DNA of 64,000 nucleotides from Clostridia bacterium (GCA_045588365.1 JAZNEB010000024.1:48963-112962), one strand, 5' to 3'; shown: positions 16,802-26,006, counted from the stretch's first letter. A program made the numbers and translations. The notes: generated by a model from the letters alone, not told the origin.

Positions 16802-17485
16802 TTATTCTTCCTTAAAATAATAACCTACTCCCCACTTTGTGTTTATGTAAATAGGATTTGCGGGATCCGGCTCTATCTTCTCTCTGAGCCTTCTTATATG
16901 TACGTCCAGAGTTCTTATATCAGCAGGATAGTCATAGCCCCATATAATATCCAGAAGGTTTTCTCTTGTATAAACCTTGCCGGGGTTTGTTATGAACAAA
17001 TCCATAATTTCAAATTCCTTGGAGGTTAATTCCACATTCTTTCCGTTTACGGTAACACGTCTTAAATTATAGTCAATCTTTATTCCGCCACGGGTAAGGG
17101 TTGTATTGTTCTTTTTAACCTGATTTTGTCCGCTTCTTCTTATAATTGCCTTGACACGGAGCTTAAGCTCCAAAATATTGAAAGGCTTGGTCAGATAGTC
17201 ATCTGCTCCGTATTCAAGACCCATAATCCTGTCCATATCGTCAGTTTTTGCGGTAAGCATAATAATGGGCACGGAGGAAAAATCCCTTATGATACGGCAC
17301 ACTTCAAGACCGTCAAGCTTTGGCAGCATAAGGTCAAGGATGATAAGGTCGATTGTCTTATCTCTGGCAAGCTTTACAGCTTCCTCTCCGTCATAGGCGG
17401 TTTCCACTTCATATCCGTCCTGCTCGAAATTAAATTTCATGCCTTTAACCAACAATTTTTCATCGTCGACTATAAGTATTTTCAT
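16802..17485 (-). CDS. OmpR-family response regulator
   Basis: 227 aa; receiver DxxxD...K and winged-helix trans_reg_C (WGYDY...). Confidence 0.9.
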   Translation of the reverse strand: MKILIVDDEKLLVKGMKFNFEQDGYEVETAYDGEEAVKLARDKTIDLIILDLMLPKLDGLEVCRIIRDFSSVPIIMLTAKTDDMDRIMGLEYGADDYLTKPFNILELKLRVKAIIRRSGQNQVKKNNTTLTRGGIKIDYNLRRVTVNGKNVELTSKEFEIMDLFITNPGKVYTRENLLDIIWGYDYPADIRTLDVHIRRLREKIEPDPANPIYINTKWGVGYYFKEE

Positions 17486-20920: not shown

Positions 20921-20947
20921 TGTTAAGATAATTCAGAGGTGTTGAGA

Positions 20948-21169
20948 ATGAAACTCCGGATAAGAGATTTAAGAGAAGACCACGATCTGACTCAAAAAGA
21001 ACTTTCAGAGCTTTTGCATATACATCAGACAACCTATTCCGCCTATGAGCTGGGAGACGTAAATGTTCCCCTGCCTGTTTTATGCTTCTTAGCGGAATTT
21101 TACAAAACCAGCATTGACTATTTAGCAGGGATACCCGACGAACCTAATCCCTATCCGAAAGCAAAATAA
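20948..21169 (+). CDS. Cro-like XRE-family HTH regulator (73 aa)
   Basis: ATG 20948 with GAGGTG RBS; HTH_XRE (LTQKELSELLHIHQTTYSAYE). Confidence 0.7.
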   Translation: MKLRIRDLREDHDLTQKELSELLHIHQTTYSAYELGDVNVPLPVLCFLAEFYKTSIDYLAGIPDEPNPYPKAK

Positions 21170-21192
21170 AAAAAGCGGCTATGCCGCTTTTT

Positions 21193-22194
21193 TTATTTTG
21201 TAGTTACCGCTATTACGCCGTCATTTATTTCCGCCTTTGCATTTTCTCCGAAAAGAAGCTTGAATATATCCAGACCAACAAAGGTTCTGTCCTCAATTAT
21301 TTCGGGAGCTTTTTCGCTTTCACTAAAAATCTTCTTTCCGATTATTAAGGACTTTTCTGCTTCGCCTTTTTTAAGTGTTACTTCTCTTTCTTCCCCATTC
21401 CAGGAAATTTCAAAGCCGAGACCTTCTGCCAAAGAACGGAGAGGAATAAGTTCTTCCTTTAAGGAAAAGGACACTTCCATTTTTTCGCCGTCAAGTAAAA
21501 TACCTTCAATTTCTCCTGCCTTTCTTTCAGCCAAGGTGAGAACTGCTATTTTTTCTGCAGGGACATGAGCGGGAAGGCTCATTCCAACGGCAGAAGCAAA
21601 TACCAAAATCTCGGAGCCCTTTGTAATGTCCATGGCTCTTAACATAATTCTTATTCTGTGTGCAGTAACAGGTGTCAAATCTTCATATACCACACGGTAG
21701 GAGCCGTCTTCGGATAGAATAACCCCGTCCTTATTTTCGGACACTACCATATAGATGGGAGCAGAAATGGAATTTTCAGTATTTACCAAAATATAAAATG
21801 CATAGTTCTGGGGCGGCAGGCTCATTGTGGTCATTGTTGAAGTTACCGCACTTATCATATCTCCCACTTTGATTTCTGCAGGGTTTAAGTTGTAATCCGC
21901 AATATATGTATTTTGGTCAATGTTTAATCTTAAGTTACCGTCATTTACCATTATGTAATCTTCTGTAATTTCCGATACGACTCCGTGCTGCATCATCTTT
22001 TCAGGCATAACAAACTCCTTGGCGTCGGCTTCTTCAAAGTCTACAGCCTCTTCAATGGGCATTGTTGAATAAGGGTCATCCTCTATGCCAATGAGCATTG
22101 TTGCGTAGGGGTCCATTTCTTCATTGGCGGAGGCATACATACCAAAAGCAGTAAATACCATTAAAACCGCCAGCAATAAACTTGTCTTTTTCAT
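21193..22194 (-). CDS. Secreted protein with C-terminal copper-amine-oxidase N-terminal-like (stalk) domain
   Basis: Start ATG 22194 (AAGGAG RBS), signal peptide MKKTSLLLAVLMVFTAFGMYASA; C-terminal Cu_amine_oxidN1-like segment (IPLRSLAEGLGFEISWNGEEREVTL). Confidence 0.55.
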   Translation of the reverse strand: MKKTSLLLAVLMVFTAFGMYASANEEMDPYATMLIGIEDDPYSTMPIEEAVDFEEADAKEFVMPEKMMQHGVVSEITEDYIMVNDGNLRLNIDQNTYIADYNLNPAEIKVGDMISAVTSTMTTMSLPPQNYAFYILVNTENSISAPIYMVVSENKDGVILSEDGSYRVVYEDLTPVTAHRIRIMLRAMDITKGSEILVFASAVGMSLPAHVPAEKIAVLTLAERKAGEIEGILLDGEKMEVSFSLKEELIPLRSLAEGLGFEISWNGEEREVTLKKGEAEKSLIIGKKIFSESEKAPEIIEDRTFVGLDIFKLLFGENAKAEINDGVIAVTTK

Positions 22195-22291
22195 AAATTT
22201 ATTCTCCTTTTTTGTTTCTGTATATAATACAATTAAAAAAAGCAAAAGGTTGCATAAAAATTAAAATATTTTAAGAAAGGTATAAATTTTC

Positions 22292-22368: not shown

Positions 22369-23364
22369 ATGAAAAAAATAAACTTAAAGGGAAAAAGCTT
22401 TTTAAAGCTTTTGGATTTTTCCCCGGAAGAAATAAATTACCTTATAGATTTAGCCGCTGATTTTAAGGCTAAAAAGAAAAAGGGAATTCCCCACAGAATA
22501 TTAAAGGGTAAGAACATCGCCTTGATTTTTGAAAAAACCAGCACAAGAACCAGATGTGCCTTTGAGGTTGCCGCATCTGACCTTGGAATGAGTTCCACTT
22601 ACCTTGACCCCACAAGCTCTCAGCTTGGCAAAAAGGAAAGTATTCCTGATACCGCAAGAGTTATAGGCAGAATGTATGACGGCATAGAATACCGTGGCTT
22701 CGGTCAGGAGATTGTGGAAAAGCTGGCTTCTTTTGCGGGCGTTCCCGTGTGGAACGGACTTACAAACGAGTTCCACCCCACTCAGATTTTAGCTGATTTC
22801 CTTACCATAAAGGAGCATTTCGGTTCACTTTCGGGCAAAAAATTGGTTTATATGGGCGATGCCAGATACAATATGGGCAACTCTTTAATGGTTGGCTGTG
22901 CCAAGATGGGTATGAATTTCGTGGCGTGCACCAGCAAAAAGTATTTCCCTGACGAGACTTTAATAAATACCTGCAGGGAAATTGCCGAAAAAACAGGCGC
23001 AACCTTATCCTTTAACGAAGACCCCATAGAGGCAACAAAAGATGCTGATGTAATTTATACAGACGTGTGGGTTTCCATGGGCGAGCCTGAAGAAGTGTGG
23101 AAAGAAAGAATAGAGGACTTATCTCCCTATCGTGTTACAAAAGAAATTATGGATAACGCCGGTGAAAAGTGCCGCTTTATGCATTGTCTTCCTGCTTTCC
23201 ACAACCTGGATACCAAAATCAGCAAAGAAATTTACGATAAATTCGGCATTGATTCAATGGAAGTTACCGAAGAGGTTTTTGAAAGCGAAAAATCCATTGT
23301 ATTTGACGAAGCTGAAAACAGAATGCACACAATTAAGGCAGTTATGGCAGCTACATTAAAGTAA
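22369..23364 (+). CDS. argF: Ornithine carbamoyltransferase
   Basis: 331 aa; STRTR carbamoyl-phosphate motif, HCLP motif. Confidence 0.9.
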
Positions 23365-23412
23365 AATTTATTAAAAAAGCTTCCTCTTATGGAGTGTACT
23401 CTTAAGGACAGT

Positions 23413-23448
23413 AAACGGAGCAGTGAATTTCACTGCTCCGTTTCGCTA
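23413..23448 (+). terminator. Terminator hairpin after argF (cggagcagtg-aattt-cactgctccg)
   Basis: 10-bp stem; weak T tract. Confidence 0.5.
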
Positions 23449-23924
23449 TTATAAAAACAATCTTTTTCCCATCTTATCACATTTGTATCTATGTATTCCC
23501 ATATCTTTTGATAGTCTTTTTCACCGCGAATTATGTGGTCGTGATATGACCTTTGCCATATAGAATTACCTATTTCTTTTGCGACCATTGTTTTGAATGA
23601 ACGAACTATGGTTTCTATGTTCTTTGTAGGGGACGATGCCCTCATCGTCCCGTTAAGAAATATAATCAAATGAATATGATTTGGCATTATTACATATTTA
23701 TCAACTGTTACATTTTCATATTTTATGTTTATATTATTGATATATCTGTCACATATTAAACCGATTTCAGACAAATTATTTTGCGGGACGATGTGGGCAT
23801 CGTCCCCTACGATTTTAGACAACAATTGCTTTCTGTCTTTGACGCATATTGTAATAAAATATGCTCCCGGTGTTGAATAATCGTACCCTTTCAATCTTGC
23901 TGGTTTTCGTTTTGGTAAAGTCAT
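23430..23924 (-). CDS. IS200/IS605-type Y1 (HUH) transposase-like protein, RAYT-like (COG1943)
   Basis: 164 aa; HUH motif PNHIHLIIF, catalytic Tyr region WQRSYHDHIIR; start overlaps XRE stop (ATGA). Confidence 0.75.
   Translation of the reverse strand: MTLPKRKPARLKGYDYSTPGAYFITICVKDRKQLLSKIVGDDAHIVPQNNLSEIGLICDRYINNINIKYENVTVDKYVIMPNHIHLIIFLNGTMRASSPTKNIETIVRSFKTMVAKEIGNSIWQRSYHDHIIRGEKDYQKIWEYIDTNVIRWEKDCFYNSETEQ
23626..23652 (+). repeat. REP-like GTAG-headed GC-rich palindrome inside transposase ORF (copy B)
   Basis: GTAG-GGGACGATG-CCCT-CATCGTCCC-G; encodes GTMRASSP in-frame on minus strand. Confidence 0.7.
23784..23810 (-). repeat. REP-like GTAG-headed GC-rich palindrome inside transposase ORF (copy A, inverted orientation)
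   Basis: minus strand GTAG-GGGACGATG-CCCA-CATCGTCCC-G; encodes GDDAHIVP in a different frame from copy B. Confidence 0.7.
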
Positions 23925-24154
23925 AATATTTCCTCTAATTTTAAAACAAAGATACTCATTTTAATATCAAGAGCATTACAAATTCTATATAATGTTTCTA
24001 AAGTAGGTTTGCGCTCCCCTCTTTCTATGGCGCTCAGATGACTTCTGCCTATGTCAGCTAATCCACTTAACACTTCTTGTGAAATGCCTTTTTGCTGTCT
24101 GAAAAAAGCAACAGTTTTACCCACTTTAATAGAATCTAGTGTGGCTATATACAT
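23921..24154 (-). CDS. XRE-family HTH transcriptional regulator (77 aa)
   Basis: HTH_XRE (ISQEVLSGLADIGRSHLSAIERGE); translationally coupled to downstream transposase gene. Confidence 0.75.
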   Translation of the reverse strand: MYIATLDSIKVGKTVAFFRQQKGISQEVLSGLADIGRSHLSAIERGERKPTLETLYRICNALDIKMSIFVLKLEEIL

Positions 24155-24194
24155 ATTCTCACCTCAAGAATAGTATATGTCATTTCAAAAGAAC

Positions 24195-24250
24195 GTTTGA
24201 ACACATATGTTGACAATCGAACACTTATGTGTTATAATTTGATTGTCAAA
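24195..24250. promoter_or_regulatory. Divergent promoter region with sigma-A promoter (TTGACA-17-TATAAT, 24210-24238) and overlapping palindromic operator-like sites
   Basis: AACACATATGTT (24200-24211), ACACTTATGTGT (24220-24231), IR TTGACAATC/GATTGTCAA (24210-24218 / 24242-24250). Confidence 0.5.
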
Positions 24251-24272
24251 TTAAAAATGGAGGTAGAACAAA

Positions 24273-25061
24273 ATGAAAAAAGGATTACAGGGGTTAATTT
24301 CAGGTGTGTTGATTGGTGCAATGATGACAAGTGGGATGGTATTTGCAAAGCAAGCATCAGAAACAATTAATGTTATTTATGATAACATAAAAATTTTGAT
24401 TGACGGCAAAGAGTATCAACCGACAGATGCAAATGGCAATGTAGTTGAGCCGTTCATTTATAACGGAACTACATATCTTCCTGTAAGAGCAATAGCAACT
24501 GCCTTTGATAAAGAAGTTGATTGGGAAGCGCAGACAAGCACCGTTACATTAGGCAGTAAAAATTATGATTGGTTAGACCAGATGGGATATGTTGATTATG
24601 AATATAGTGCTATAGGAAATTCATTTTCTGCTTTGCCGGAGAACACAAAAATGTCGGATGATACGAAATTTAATAGAGGAATTATGTTTGAACTTTATGA
24701 TTACTTAGGAAATACAGGGGGTACGACGGAAAATAAAGATGGTTCATTTGGATGTAATGAAAGTATATCATATTTACTCAATGGTCAATATAAGTCCTTT
24801 CGCGGAACAATATCTCATAAAGAAAGTGGAAATACAAGAGTTGGAAATTCAGTAATAAAAATTTATGGCGATGGAAAGTTGCTATACACTTCTCCCGCAG
24901 TGTCATATGGAATGAAGTCAACAAATTTTGATATTTCGGTTGAAAGTGTTAAATTATTAAAAATTGATGTAGAATTTTTGAACACCATCGGAACAACAGC
25001 TGTATCAAATACAAAGAAGTCATTTCCCTGTATTGCTGATGCAAGATTATGTAAAAAATAA
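24273..25061 (+). CDS. Secreted protein: copper-amine-oxidase N-terminal-like domain + NPCBM-like carbohydrate-binding domain
   Basis: 262 aa; signal peptide; segment NGTTYLPVRAIATAFDKEVDW typical of Cu_amine_oxidN1; C-terminal NPCBM/NEW2-like. Confidence 0.5.
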   Translation: MKKGLQGLISGVLIGAMMTSGMVFAKQASETINVIYDNIKILIDGKEYQPTDANGNVVEPFIYNGTTYLPVRAIATAFDKEVDWEAQTSTVTLGSKNYDWLDQMGYVDYEYSAIGNSFSALPENTKMSDDTKFNRGIMFELYDYLGNTGGTTENKDGSFGCNESISYLLNGQYKSFRGTISHKESGNTRVGNSVIKIYGDGKLLYTSPAVSYGMKSTNFDISVESVKLLKIDVEFLNTIGTTAVSNTKKSFPCIADARLCKK

Positions 25062-25164
25062 TGTCCGGGACTGTAACAAGCAGGGAAAATGTATATCATT
25101 TTCCGAGATATTTTAGAATATCCTAAGACCTTAAAATGGGCGATTCGTGAATCTCCCCTACGAT

Positions 25165-25203
25165 AAAAGGCTGAACGAAATCAATCGTTCAGCCTTTCAA
25201 AAT
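25165..25203 (-). terminator. Terminator hairpin (aggctgaacga-loop-tcgttcagcct) downstream of relQ-like gene
   Basis: 11-bp stem; T tract on minus-strand side. Confidence 0.5.
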
Positions 25204-25226
25204 TACTGTCCTTAACAGTACACCTC

Positions 25227-25934
25227 TTATGAGGAAGCTTTTTTATCATATACACATTCTCTCAGGTGGTCCATGGTTTTGTCAAGCTTTGCGCTCATCT
25301 TGGCACAAAGAAGCAAATCCTCGGACATTTCCTTTGTAAATTCCACGTCTTTTTTATATTTAAGCTGATGCTCTAATGCAGCCCAGGAGTCCATGGCAAT
25401 GGTACGAAGCTGAATTTCAACCTTCATATATCTTTTTTCATCAATTAAGAAAATGGGCACGGAAACAATAAGGTGCAGACTTCTGTAGCCGTTTGGCTTC
25501 GGCTTTTTTATATAGTCCTTTTTCTTTATAAGGGTAATGTCATCCTGGCTTAAAAGTGCCGATGCAATCTTATATACATCCTCAGTAAAGGTGCATATAA
25601 CTCTGACTCCCGCCACGTCATTTAAGTTTTCTTCAATGGACGGAAGAGATATATCAAACCCGTTTTTGGAAAGCTTTGTCCTTATACTTTCGGGATTTTT
25701 AAGTCTCGATTTTATACTGTTTATGGGATTTCTGTCATACCTTAAGGAAAACTGTTCATTTAATACATTAAGCTTCGTTTCAATTTCCATAAGAGCGCAC
25801 TTATAATACGCCATAAGTCTGTTATAGCTTTCCAGGTATTCCCTCAGCTTTTCTCCCGCATCGGTTTCCCTGAAAAAGGAAACTATCATATCCTGCTGTC
25901 TTTTATCTCCAAGCTGTATTGTTTCAGACATCAA
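25227..25934 (-). CDS. Small alarmone synthetase (RelQ/RelP-type GTP pyrophosphokinase)
   Basis: 235 aa; RelA/SpoT synthetase domain (GVRVICTF, RSLHLIV) without hydrolase or regulatory domains. Confidence 0.8.
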   Translation of the reverse strand: MMSETIQLGDKRQQDMIVSFFRETDAGEKLREYLESYNRLMAYYKCALMEIETKLNVLNEQFSLRYDRNPINSIKSRLKNPESIRTKLSKNGFDISLPSIEENLNDVAGVRVICTFTEDVYKIASALLSQDDITLIKKKDYIKKPKPNGYRSLHLIVSVPIFLIDEKRYMKVEIQLRTIAMDSWAALEHQLKYKKDVEFTKEMSEDLLLCAKMSAKLDKTMDHLRECVYDKKASS

Positions 25935-26006
25935 AACACCTCCCTTATATAAATATCATAATATAAATGAAGTAAATAGTCAAGGTTACTTATGTTAATT
26001 AAATGT

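Follow-up and report, generated by a model that had tools for sequence, protein, structure and literature searches.

A terminal-inverted-repeat cassette at the tip of a split argF/relQ terminator hairpin in Clostridia, with a RAYT-type Y1 nuclease as its candidate mobilizer

Between the convergent argF and relQ-like genes of a Clostridia bacterium lies a segment of three genes, one of them coding for a Y1/HUH nuclease, that is enclosed by a long inverted repeat (Table 1). An earlier note, made from the DNA alone, took the 42-nt repeats as the boundaries of an unusual unit that might be mobile, mobilizable, or invertible. The locus therefore raises the question of what the repeats are, whether the segment has moved as a unit, and which enzyme could have moved it. 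We use "the window" for the whole stretch of DNA analyzed, which is 64,000 nucleotides (64 kb) long.

Table 1. Features of the argF-relQ interval, with positions counted from the first letter of the window
Feature	Position	Strand	Description or basis
argF	22369-23364	+	Gene call
5' stem half of the bidirectional argF/relQ terminator, AAAAAAGCTTCCTC	23373-23386	+	Host DNA; contiguous with its partner in L019
Left loop copy, TTAT	23387-23390	+	Once in the empty site, twice in the window
Left TIR, GGAGTGTACTCTTAAGGACAGTAA	23391-23414	+	24 nt; 20-nt core kept in ~70 Clostridia genomes, outer flanks vary by locus
Subterminal perfect hairpin A	23413-23443		15-bp stem; -16.3 kcal/mol, z = -10
Y1/HUH nuclease gene, RAYT (TnpA_REP) type	23430-23924	-	164 aa; Pfam Y1_Tnp
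GTAG-tagged REP-like hairpin in Y1 ORF	23626-23651	+	Encodes GTMRASSP, just past HUH motif; -10.4 kcal/mol
Second GTAG-tagged hairpin in Y1 ORF	23785-23810	-	Inverted, another frame (VGDDAHIVP); hairpin scan
XRE-family HTH regulator	23921-24154	-	77 aa; Pfam HTH_3, E = 3.6e-15
Divergent control region	24155-24272		Short palindromes; holds promoter for secreted-protein gene
Secreted Cu_amine_oxidN1 + NPCBM-like protein (cargo)	24273-25061	+	262 aa; Pfam
Conserved noncoding module	25068-25137	+	GTAACAAGCAGG, hairpin 25084-25104, palindrome TTAGAATATCCTAA, GACCTT
Third GTAG-tagged REP-like hairpin	25138-25161	-	Stem type unlike the two in-ORF ones
Subterminal perfect hairpin B	25166-25197		13-bp stem; -14.3 kcal/mol, z = -9.9
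Right TIR, GAGGTGTACTGTTAAGGACAGTAA (minus-strand reading)	25203-25226	-	Repeat search and family comparison
Right loop copy, TTAT	25227-25230	+	TA at 25228-25229; also relQ stop codon on minus strand
3' stem half of host terminator, GAGGAAGCTTTTTT	25231-25244	+	Minus strand codes native relQ C terminus KKASS
relQ-like gene, RelA_SpoT small synthetase	25227-25931	-	Gene call and domain

A repeat search returned arms of 43 nt (23372-23414 and 25203-25245) that are 88% complementary and form by far the longest inverted repeat of the region. Read directly, 23373-23414 and the reverse complement of 25203-25244 are identical at 37 of 42 positions, just as the note had it, with mismatches at positions 15, 18, 20, 21, and 29; no such match is expected by chance. 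The 42-mer had no further copy in the 64-kb window at three or fewer mismatches, none of 100 shuffles gave a match, and its inner 13-mer occurs at just two sites in the window, one per arm. We rejected the 42-mer as a dispersed REP-like repeat because the window holds no other copy. The repeat is a composite in which the outer 14 nt are a split host terminator stem and the inner 24 nt alone are the terminal inverted repeat (TIR) of the element, which corrects the note, where the full 42 bp were taken to bound the cassette. The left and right TIR cores have one difference in 20 positions.

The stem is unsplit in a related species (L019; GCA_045123995.1), which has no cassette. Gene order there is the same, both flanks match the window at 81 to 82% DNA identity, and argF and relQ abut across a whole hairpin, AAAAAAGCTTCCTC-TTAT-GAGGAAGCTTTTTT, which is the empty site that the note had proposed to look for. 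The alignment stops at window positions 23391 and 25223-25226. In folding analysis the intact argF/relQ terminator hairpin reached -14 kcal/mol (z = -7.5), and the host stem halves that flank the cassette are still perfect complements. Because L019 has an intact hairpin and no cassette, the 1.84-kb segment has, on this comparison, been precisely inserted at the tip of the hairpin or precisely excised from it. The codons for KKASS* at the end of relQ, which the note had ascribed to the right-hand repeat of the element, belong to the stem and loop of the host terminator, and cassette-free relatives share them exactly: KKASS terminates P0122 to P0124, of which P0123 is the relQ product of L019. 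The TA of the left loop copy, at 23388-23389, sits where the family described below has its invariant flanking dinucleotide. A general 4-bp duplication was rejected, with the same 4-mer standing on both sides in just 3 of about 15 intact pairs and TA alone being invariant. Since a single empty site was found, a TA duplication is indistinguishable from a target-motif copy brought in by the element. We sought a second empty site via the MetA gene flanking locus L050 and found the element in all 22 contigs examined from that species; relatives at 89 to 90% identity have other downstream synteny and another hairpin.

We scanned 185,579 species genomes with the 20-nt TIR core and obtained 84 stretches, of which uncultured Clostridia account for about 70. 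Some 17 matches are expected by chance for a 36-bit pattern in 596 Gb, and about 13 matches in Bacteroidota, archaea, cyanobacteria, and others were discarded as chance. Among 93 unique TIR ends, 87 have TA at -7/-6, and 87 have an A-run upstream. The split-hairpin flanks of TIR pairs vary between loci, and in 19 of 30 pairs at least 8 of the 10 nt just beyond the junction can pair with each other, compared with 2.3% of mismatched-locus controls. Element length runs from 68 bp to 3.8 kb, including miniature forms of 68 to 211 bp, and elements contain Y1 alone, Y1 together with regulator and secreted-protein genes as in the window, or other cargo (restriction-modification, NERD, Fic, VanW). Y1 is the sole gene of the 688-bp element L074, and the 68-bp element L102 consists of TIR, hairpin, and TIR. 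The 24-bp TIRs bound the window unit and eight further Y1 loci. Close Y1 relatives (83 to 90% identity) occupy at least six unrelated contexts, with many more contexts for cargo copies, and some MAGs hold multiple copies (six contigs in JAZQIO). One end is degraded at some loci (L007, L009), and the flanks do not match at others. A blastn search of the plasmid collection gave no match, and tblastn against the phage collection gave a single Y1 homologue, of 40% identity, from a phage-like contig that carries no annotation; four IMG/VR matches to the TIR pattern lacked the TA and hairpin context and were set aside as chance.

These results show a 1,836-bp unit (23391-25226) with 24-bp TIRs in the TTAT loop between convergent argF and relQ, flanked by a direct repeat of TA (formally TTAT), and a family with a common TIR, a preference for TA at a hairpin tip, a noncoding module, and interchangeable cargo. 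This family of gut-Clostridia cassettes with varied cargo, to which the unit belongs, is apparently undescribed. A nucleotide-precise empty site in a relative and copies in differing contexts are the generic marks of a transposable element, and together with the recurrence of the three-gene module and inner repeat in unrelated contexts elsewhere they bear out the note's picture of a discrete mobile or mobilizable module between argF and relQ.

The predicted Y1 protein scored 29 bits with Pfam Y1_Tnp (PF01797; cutoff, 23). Its best-scoring model was NCBIfam REP_Tyr_transpos (NF047646), at 62.9 bits, which is under that model's cutoff of 80; the NCBIfam IS200 model gave 18.4 bits (cutoff, 55). 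The top PDB match was E. coli TnpA_REP (4ER8; E = 0.004), aligned over the HUH to Y region. We found 7,391 homologues, and in two homologue alignments the motifs PNHIHLI, IWQR, and EYIDTN(V/P) are conserved; the HUH, WQ, and Y...N(P) motifs of the window protein are intact, with V where the final P stands in most homologues. The model scores agree with the 164-aa HUH/Y1 transposase-like gene of the note. Judged by sequence, the protein is a divergent RAYT relative, closer to RAYT than to IS200 transposases, and when placed by the published signature it resembles subclass 2.4, having NHIH, WQ, and YIDTN(P) as well as GTAG hairpins within the ORF in every homologue examined.

The pair of in-ORF hairpins keeps the same positions in all homologues examined, and the stems co-vary within each gene. 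In most elements with Y1 and the secreted protein, an equivalent of the third GTAG hairpin follows hairpin B; L069, L047, and L096 have none. GTAG-GGG hairpins in the 64-kb window are confined to the cassette; the other window match of the GTAG-hairpin scan (16802-16828) has an A+T-rich stem and is at shuffle background. GTAG REPs flank more distant Y1 homologues. We dismissed sub-threshold matches of Rfam plant miRNA-precursor models to the long fold-back inside Y1.

The remainder of the cassette is laid out as the note described it, with coupled XRE and Y1 genes, a divergent secreted-protein gene, and a promoter among palindromes. The XRE stop codon overlaps the Y1 start (ATGA), and L001 and L007 have an HTH gene at the same position. 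A promoter scan placed TTGACA-17-TATAAT with an upstream TG at 24210-24238 on the plus strand, matching at 12 of 12 hexamer positions. The divergent promoters are probably under repression by the XRE protein. The NPCBM-like secreted protein is the second commonest interior protein of the family (12 ends). The noncoding module is present in about 50 family elements, including cargo-only and 189-bp forms, and its hairpin shows compensatory changes at 5 of 9 pairs; Rfam has no family for the cassette or for this module. Subterminal hairpins A and B look terminator-like, A for Y1 and argF read-through and B for the secreted-protein gene and relQ read-through. Hairpin A fails the T-tail criterion of the terminator scanner, and related elements have hairpins of other sequence at its position.

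No enzyme but Y1 recurs within the elements (20 ends), and most of the remaining interior proteins are singletons. Clustering of interior ORFs and two Pfam scans of 20 large interior proteins found no DDE transposase within or beside the elements, these large proteins being cargo or host genes. In the 10 TIR-linked Y1 genes measured, the stop codon lies 15 to 29 nt from the inner edge of the TIR, and these proteins share 48 to 85% identity while the TIR core is nearly invariant. A rough NJ tree puts the TIR-linked Y1s in two clades, with a TIR in 0 of about 58 other homologues. A Y1-based metagenome search (80 loci, 37 to 62% identity) found a TIR beside one homologue only, L105, so the TIR is clade specific and not a trait of the whole Y1 family. 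One Y1 homologue of 83% identity that has no TIR ends a housekeeping operon (L015); this gene, like the fixation of the element in the 22 L050-species contigs, is compatible with a domesticated gene that seldom moves.

On balance we lean toward the reading that the cassette, a family member at the dyad center of the terminator loop, was moved by its RAYT-type Y1 protein. The nuclease coded beside one TIR would cut and rejoin the ends, acting in cis here and in trans on cargo-only and miniature copies. Its substrate would be single-stranded or extruded hairpin DNA that presents the target TA in its loop. The TIRs and the split host stem could zip into a helix of about 42 bp, with the two junctions brought face to face in a short unpaired stretch; this 8-nt junction contains all but one of the five mismatches of the inverted repeat. 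The cassette splits the host terminator, and a strong hairpin just inside each TIR can stop read-through from the host genes as well as from its own. We infer the mobilizing role of Y1 from its being the sole recurrent interior enzyme, from its fixed spacing to the TIR, its intact motifs, and the Y1-only element L074, and from the 68-bp element, which shares a MAG with a Y1 element (L065). Several observations count against this role. The tetranucleotide beside the subterminal hairpins is GTAA and not the RAYT-recognized GT[AG]G, the hairpin sequence at one end is not that at the other, and the window has one cassette copy only. Moreover, characterized Y1 elements (IS200/IS605) lack TIRs and target duplication, and TA flanks with TIRs are what typifies DDE elements of the IS630/Tc1-mariner kind. 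Still more tentatively, and at somewhat less than an even chance, the cassettes may make up an unrecognized class of HUH (RAYT-type Y1) transposons with true TIRs, TA targets in terminator-hairpin loops of extruded or single-stranded DNA, hairpins of their own in place of the terminators they split, and a role as vehicles for cargo of one or several genes, restriction-modification systems among it.

TIRs with TA at 87 of 93 ends would also be produced by a nonautonomous, MITE-like cargo unit moved by an IS630/Tc1-mariner-like DDE transposase coded elsewhere, with Y1 as cargo or a domesticated gene, and we regard this as unlikely while giving it real weight. Many cassettes have no Y1, miniature forms exist, the cognate GTAG REP hairpins of the Y1 family are unrelated to the TIR, the Y1 of L015 has no TIR, and RAYTs are generally held to be domesticated and vertically inherited (PMC5581495). 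However, no other transposase lies between or beside the approximately 93 TIR ends from the species genomes, and the plasmid and phage collections point to no other vehicle. MITEs normally have TIRs in common with a parent element that is autonomous, but we saw no such parent. The position and orientation of Y1 beside one TIR are also fixed across deep protein divergence.

The single copy in the window and the fixation in the L050 species, along with the degraded ends and nonmatching flanks at some loci and the fact that the window and L019, at 81 to 82% identity, come from different species, could instead reflect one old insertion by any mechanism that is now an immobile, vertically inherited island. 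This seems improbable to us, given intact ORFs and catalytic motifs, nearly identical TIR cores, perfect host stem halves, and the spread of close Y1 relatives over several contexts with multiple copies in some MAGs. The note had also allowed for an invertible module, and a phase-variable unit flipping between the 42-bp repeats would suit their placement around divergent promoters. We give this very little credence: the segment has no invertase gene, in no locus did we see an opposite-orientation copy at the same site, the outer 14 nt are host terminator DNA, and TIRs plus a split hairpin explain the repeat.

RAYT/TnpA_REP genes occur in about one-quarter of bacterial species and are treated as domesticated and single copy (PMC6006769; PMC5581495). 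The locus provides a nucleotide-precise pair of filled and empty sites for a RAYT-bearing unit, with the 24-bp end and the target defined, and natural mini-substrates of 68 and 189 bp, which together allow a direct test of whether, and how, RAYT-type enzymes transpose DNA. If the cassettes do make up such a class of HUH transposons, this would be the first RAYT-family enzyme tied to precise gene-carrying transposition and not to REP spread or domestication. Should Y1 prove to be the mobilizer, the family would also be a cassette system through which defense and accessory genes spread among gut Clostridia with host transcription units left unharmed. Should it not, some transposase acting in trans, with an unusual specificity for hairpin tips, would have to be sought. 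Apparently new are the TA target at a hairpin tip, the empty site, and the cargo cassettes.

Among known systems, IS200/IS605 elements (IS608, ISDra2) have a Y1 HUH enzyme and subterminal hairpins, with a target tetranucleotide abutting one end and a similar motif at the other. The cassette has the same kind of enzyme and subterminal hairpins, and the single-stranded chemistry of these elements (summarized in PMC6006769) would suit hairpin-loop targets. However, IS200/IS605 elements have no TIRs, have alike end hairpins on one strand and a Y...Q motif, and reach high copy numbers; the cassette has TIRs, Y...N(P), and unlike end hairpins A and B, which places it outside this group. IS630/Tc1-mariner elements and bacterial MITEs have TIRs, TA at both flanks, and short nonautonomous derivatives, as the cassettes do, but they encode, or depend on, a DDE transposase with the same TIRs, and we found none within or beside the cassettes. 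To our knowledge their TIR sequences are unrelated to the cassette TIR, and a preference for terminator-hairpin tips has not been described for them. IS1397 and ISKpn1 (IS3 family) insert in REP/PU palindromes, at the loop, and for IS110/IS1111 elements the target is a REP or attC hairpin; as with the cassette, the center of a palindrome is targeted and its halves end up flanking the element. These elements encode their own DDE or DEDD transposases, use REP or attC targets and not ordinary terminators, and are not known to form a family of cargo cassettes.

The note considered a Y1 unit bounded by inverted repeats unusual, but there is precedent in the RAYT-like genes flanked by TIRs for which Di Nocera et al. 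introduced the name TIRYT/TIRtrons in 2013 (PMC3733652) and which Quentin et al. discussed in 2018 (PMC6006769). Both TIR-flanked RAYT genes and GTAG hairpins inside a RAYT ORF were already known. Like TIRtrons, the cassette has a RAYT-like Y1 gene flanked by long TIRs, unrelated to REPs, with L074 as the minimal form; TIRtron TIRs can also form small repeat families (PMC3733652). The TIRtron TIR motif GGGGWSAS resembles the start of the cassette TIR (GGGGTG in L001, GGAGTG and GAGGTG in the window), the family TIRs beginning GGGGTGTA, GGAGTGTA, or GAGGTGTA with a fit limited to the first six positions. Published TIRtrons are mostly of subclass 2.1, about 238 aa with a C-terminal HTH, from Proteobacteria and Acidobacteria, whereas the cassette Y1 has 164 aa and no C-terminal domain, is subclass 2.4-like, and is accompanied by a separate XRE gene. 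The TIRtron papers contain no analysis of target sites, duplications, empty sites, or cargo (PMC3733652, PMC6006769), and the words "target site," "duplication," and "terminator" are absent from PMC3733652. REPtrons of subclass 2.4 (Bertels group 4; PMC6006769) share with the cassette Y1 the NH[IFV]H, WQ, and YI..NP motifs, GTAG hairpins whose stem base has three G-C pairs, in-ORF REPs that keep the reading frame, and low copy number. Within the cassette, one GTAG hairpin (25138-25161) borders the gene region, and the ORF contains two more. For REPtrons there is "no formal evidence for autonomous mobility" (PMC6006769). Canonical REPtrons are flanked by genome-dispersed REPs or REPINs, whereas the cassette Y1 lies in a TIR-bounded unit with an empty site.

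A repeat search returned, as the longest inverted repeat of the region, two 43-nt arms at 23372 to 23414 and 25203 to 25245 that are 88% complementary. By direct reading, 23373 to 23414 is identical to the reverse complement of 25203 to 25244 at 37 of 42 positions (mismatches at positions 15, 18, 20, 21, and 29), so the 42-nt inverted repeat claimed in an earlier note on this DNA was borne out, as was the gene content given there (argF, Y1, XRE, a secreted NPCBM protein, and relQ). The 64-kb window contained no further copy of the 42-mer with three or fewer mismatches, and none of 100 shuffles gave one. The secreted-protein gene is preceded by a perfect TTGACA-17-TATAAT promoter; its NPCBM-like product is cargo, and the XRE gene is probably a regulator of the divergent promoters. 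Just upstream of argF, at 20939 to 22245, a host XRE HTH gene (76 aa) and a secreted Cu_amine_oxidN1 protein (350 aa) have the same two domain types as the cassette; L019, a relative without the cassette, has both genes as well.

Features of the window and of related elements (window coordinates unless a locus handle beginning with L is given)
Feature	Location	Strand	Remark
argF	22369-23364	+	
Y1_Tnp protein (Y1)	23430-23924	-	164 aa
XRE HTH protein	23921-24154	-	77 aa; stop overlaps Y1 start (ATGA)
Cu_amine_oxidN1 + NPCBM protein	24273-25061	+	262 aa
RelA_SpoT small alarmone synthetase (relQ)	25227-25931	-	
GTAG hairpin pair in Y1 ORF	23626-23651 and 23785-23810		read in different frames
Third GTAG hairpin of the cassette	25138-25161		
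Subterminal hairpin, argF side	23413-23443		-16.3 kcal/mol
Subterminal hairpin B, relQ side	25166-25197		-14.3 kcal/mol
Conserved ~70-nt module	25068-25137; L069:3943-4020; L047:2981-3058		
Complete-element cargo	L047		DpnII-type restriction-modification system
Complete-element cargo	L079, L096		operons with N6-methylase-like and specificity-subunit-like ORFs (ORF translations only)
Complete-element cargo	L061		NERD protein
Complete-element cargo	L086		Fic protein
Complete-element cargo	L038		VanW protein
Complete-element cargo	L043, L045		multi-pass membrane proteins (ORF translations only)
Complete-element cargo	L070		LRR-like repeat protein (ORF translation only)
Complete-element cargo	L092		hexapeptide acetyltransferase-like protein (ORF translation only)
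Minimal form	L074		688 bp; Y1 only
Minimal form	L069		189 bp; TIR - hairpin - conserved module - hairpin - TIR
Minimal form	L102		68 bp; TIR - hairpin - TIR; same MAG as full Y1 element L065

The metagenome contig L001 encodes a Y1 protein 90% identical to that of the window within the same three-gene module, likewise flanked by an inverted repeat, in an unrelated neighborhood (tRNA/TspO on one side and TPR/AspRS on the other). The inner 24 nt of the repeat (GGRGTGTACTSTTAAGGAYAGTAA), the terminal inverted repeat (TIR), are common to both loci, and the outer 14 nt (AAAAAAGCTTCCTC in the window and AAAAAAGACTATTC in L001) are mutually inverted within each locus. Because these outer parts are locus specific yet inverted, we predicted that they are the halves of a host hairpin split by insertion in its loop. 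L019 (GCA_045123995.1) confirmed this prediction. Its contig has the gene order of the window (HAD hydrolase, flavin reductase-rubredoxin, relQ, argF, Cu_amine_oxidN1 protein, and HTH gene) with a relQ-argF spacer of only 22 nt, which in window orientation reads ...aag taa aatttatt AAAAAAGCTTCCTC TTAT GAGGAAGCTTTTTT atcat... and forms an intact bidirectional terminator hairpin (-14 kcal/mol; z = -7.5). The reconstructed cassette-free site is ...AAAAAAGCTTCCTCTTATGAGGAAGCTTTTTT....

In blastn, L019 and the window were 81 to 82% identical on either side of the cassette, with breaks at 23391 and 25223 to 25226. With the intact hairpin, these breaks show that the cassette is a nucleotide-precise insertion or was precisely excised in the other lineage, the unit gained or lost being 1,836 bp (23391 to 25226) together with a duplicate of the loop TTAT. 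The cassette is thus a discrete, TIR-bounded element, present or absent at a precise site in the TA-containing loop of a terminator hairpin, and that it is a mobile insertion at all is very probable. The empty site, with argF directly next to relQ, is the arrangement that the earlier note had proposed to look for. Its claim that the right repeat of the element supplies the last codons of relQ was refuted: relQ homologues at 92 to 93% identity, including the one encoded by L019, also end in KKASS, so these codons and the stop are host sequence. A third relative, L020 (GCA_965319795.1), is also without the element. There, relQ alone is flipped relative to the window and L019 (L020:5948-6693 versus window 25239 to 25984) and is flanked by the argF terminator region and by the hairpin that comes next; the argF-relQ spacer contains neither hairpin nor element.

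We scanned one genome per species (185,579 species) for the TIR core TGTAYTNTTAAGGAYAGTAA and obtained 84 matching stretches. About 13 of these, in unrelated phyla and with no context features at all, were rejected as chance matches, of which about 17 were expected. The remainder are from uncultured Clostridia, namely Acutalibacteraceae, Oscillospiraceae, and MAGs labeled "Clostridia bacterium," and most come from the guts of ruminants or other animals. Over 93 unique TIR ends, the core is almost unchanged and the four adjoining outward positions are G-R-G-K, followed by A or T and then by TA at 87 ends; an A-run lies farther outward, also at 87 of the 93. Plus/minus TIR pairs (n = 30) span 68 bp to 3.8 kb. 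In 19 of the 30, at least 8 of the 10 positions outside one junction are complementary to those outside the other, versus 2.3% of controls with flanks from different loci, and the flanking stems differ at each locus. This combination of TA with complementary, locus-specific flanks indicates that the target of the family is a TA located at the dyad of A-run/T-run hairpins, in other words intergenic intrinsic terminators. The two junctions have only TA in common. Identical flanking 4-mers like those of the window are exceptional; the two 4-mers differ in L032 (GTAT/ATAA), L047 (GTAA/TTAT), L054 (TTAA/ATAG), and L069 (ATAT/TTAA).

Two species carry cassettes with unlike cargo, an LRR protein (L070:2862-4611) and Y1 plus a secreted protein (L099:4495-6231), in the same neighborhood (sporulation-type sigma-factor gene/452-aa conserved gene) but in different hairpins. 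Two strains (L007:3282-3954 and L009:2379-3522) have a common cassette beside IleRS that has lost the TIR at the secreted-protein end, with half of hairpin B remaining; the adjoining DNA holds additional GTAG hairpins, one inverted doublet among them. The L007 cassette abuts prophage-type lysis genes (Amidase_2 and holin), and the L009 cassette abuts a GerAC gene.

Many other sets of cargo genes lie between the same ends. When all ORFs of at least 90 aa inside TIR ends were clustered, only two families were frequent, Y1 (20 ends) and the NPCBM-like protein (12 ends), and the other 58 clusters had one or two members. Pfam analysis found no transposase among 20 large interior proteins, several of which are clearly host genes past a degraded second end, and the elements encode no DDE enzyme in cis. 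One MAG, JAZQIO (SGB_917), has TIR matches on six contigs (L025, L030, L034, L055, L078, and L080). These belong to a variant subfamily whose subterminal hairpin arises by pairing of the inner TIR bases with CTATCCTT farther downstream. MITE-like members, 197 and 463 bp long, have an internal CCGCTGTCCGCGGGG motif in common, and hairpin halves are not obvious in their flanks.

A module of about 70 nt, consisting of GTAACAAGCAGG, a hairpin, and the palindrome TTAGGA-N-CCTAA, recurs in about 50 elements of all cargo classes and in the 189-bp form. Its hairpin shows compensatory changes in 5 of 9 pairs, and no Rfam family matched it. The orientation of the module relative to the cargo genes varies by element type, an argument for action at the level of DNA, and the module probably serves as a DNA site. 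A strong hairpin lies just inside each TIR, constant in position and variable in sequence by end and element. These subterminal hairpins resemble substitute terminators that would serve both the element's own genes and the host genes that lost their shared terminator to the split, although they fail the strict T-tail rule of the terminator scanner.

The profile check proposed for the 164-aa protein supported a REP-associated tyrosine transposase (RAYT) in part: Y1 scored 62.9 bits against NCBIfam REP_Tyr_transpos, below the cutoff of 80, versus 18.4 bits against the IS200 model. The top PDB match was Escherichia coli TnpA_REP (4ER8), and the motifs NHIH, WQ, and YIDTN(P) form the class 2 "Y...NP" signature. 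Judged by its sequence, Y1 is a relative of RAYTs and not of IS200 transposases, and by published motif signatures it fits subclass 2.4 of Quentin et al. (2018; PMC6006769). In all homologues examined, the Y1 ORF contains two GTAG-tagged hairpins in inverted orientation that flank the HUH motif at constant positions; the equivalent pair is at the same ORF positions in L007, L015, L032, L050, L062, L065, and L084, with stems that match (covary) within a gene and are unlike between homologues. In-frame REP insertions in tnpA_REP have been published as a hallmark of subclass 2.4, so the hairpins in the Y1 ORF are not new in kind; the account of that subclass does not note a fixed inverted pair (PMC6006769). 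The only other GTAG-hairpin match in the window (16802 to 16828) has an A+T-rich stem and is at shuffle background. A 190-nt fold-back in the Y1 ORF gave subthreshold miRNA-precursor matches in Rfam.

A search for Y1 homologues gave 7391 matches. Among 80 metagenomic homologues (37 to 62% identity), only L105 had a TIR, and many were flanked by GTAG REPs instead. In a rough neighbor-joining tree, influenced by variable loops, TIR-linked Y1 genes fell in two clades; L015, an 83%-identity homologue inside one of these, has no TIR and lies at the end of a radical-SAM/DUF2344 operon.

We lean, by a modest degree, toward Y1 as the transposase of these elements. It is the sole recurrent enzyme inside them, Y1-only elements exist, and the TIR association is restricted to certain clades. 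The stop codons of the TIR-linked Y1 genes measured lie 15 to 29 nt from the inner TIR edge, a spacing kept at 48 to 85% Y1 identity to that of the window, with the TIR barely changed. HUH enzymes cut single-stranded DNA, and a hairpin loop provides such DNA. When single stranded, both TIRs together with the split stem of the host can anneal as a single helix of about 42 bp, with the junctions facing each other in a small unpaired region, the site of four of the five repeat mismatches. Such a geometry would suit concerted cleavage and rejoining with restoration of the host hairpin. The single empty site, in L019, fits either of two variants: symmetrical nicking of both cruciform loops, which would yield a 2-bp TA duplication, or an IS200/IS605-like single-strand reaction in which the target tetranucleotide is also borne by the element itself.

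Several observations count against Y1. TA flanks with TIRs are classic features of IS630/mariner (DDE) elements, the tetranucleotide beside the subterminal hairpins is GTAA and not GT[AG]G, and Y1 is also found without TIRs. Moreover, all 22 contigs compared for the L050 species (L189 and 21 similar ones from different samples) carry the cassette beside metA, so this cassette is fixed rather than polymorphic in that species. The alternative, that some other transposase moves the cassettes in trans, we consider rather unlikely.

TIR-flanked RAYT-like genes have been named TIRYT or TIRtrons, with the TIR motif GGGGWSAS (Di Nocera et al. 2013; PMC3733652), and most were equated with subclass 2.1 proteins bearing a C-terminal HTH by Quentin et al. 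(PMC6006769), who note that there is no formal evidence that these elements are mobile. RAYTs have been described as domesticated and vertically inherited (Bertels et al. 2017; PMC5581495). Full-text searches found TIRYT or TIRtron only in Di Nocera et al. and Quentin et al., neither of which analyzed targets, duplications, empty sites, or cargo, and a search combining HUH, transposase, and terminator-hairpin insertion found nothing. The cassette is best regarded as a TIRtron-type unit with a subclass 2.4-like RAYT at its core. It goes beyond TIRtrons in its defined TA target at the hairpin tip, its demonstrated empty site, and its conserved noncoding scaffold, and its family adds cargo-carrying and miniature derivatives.
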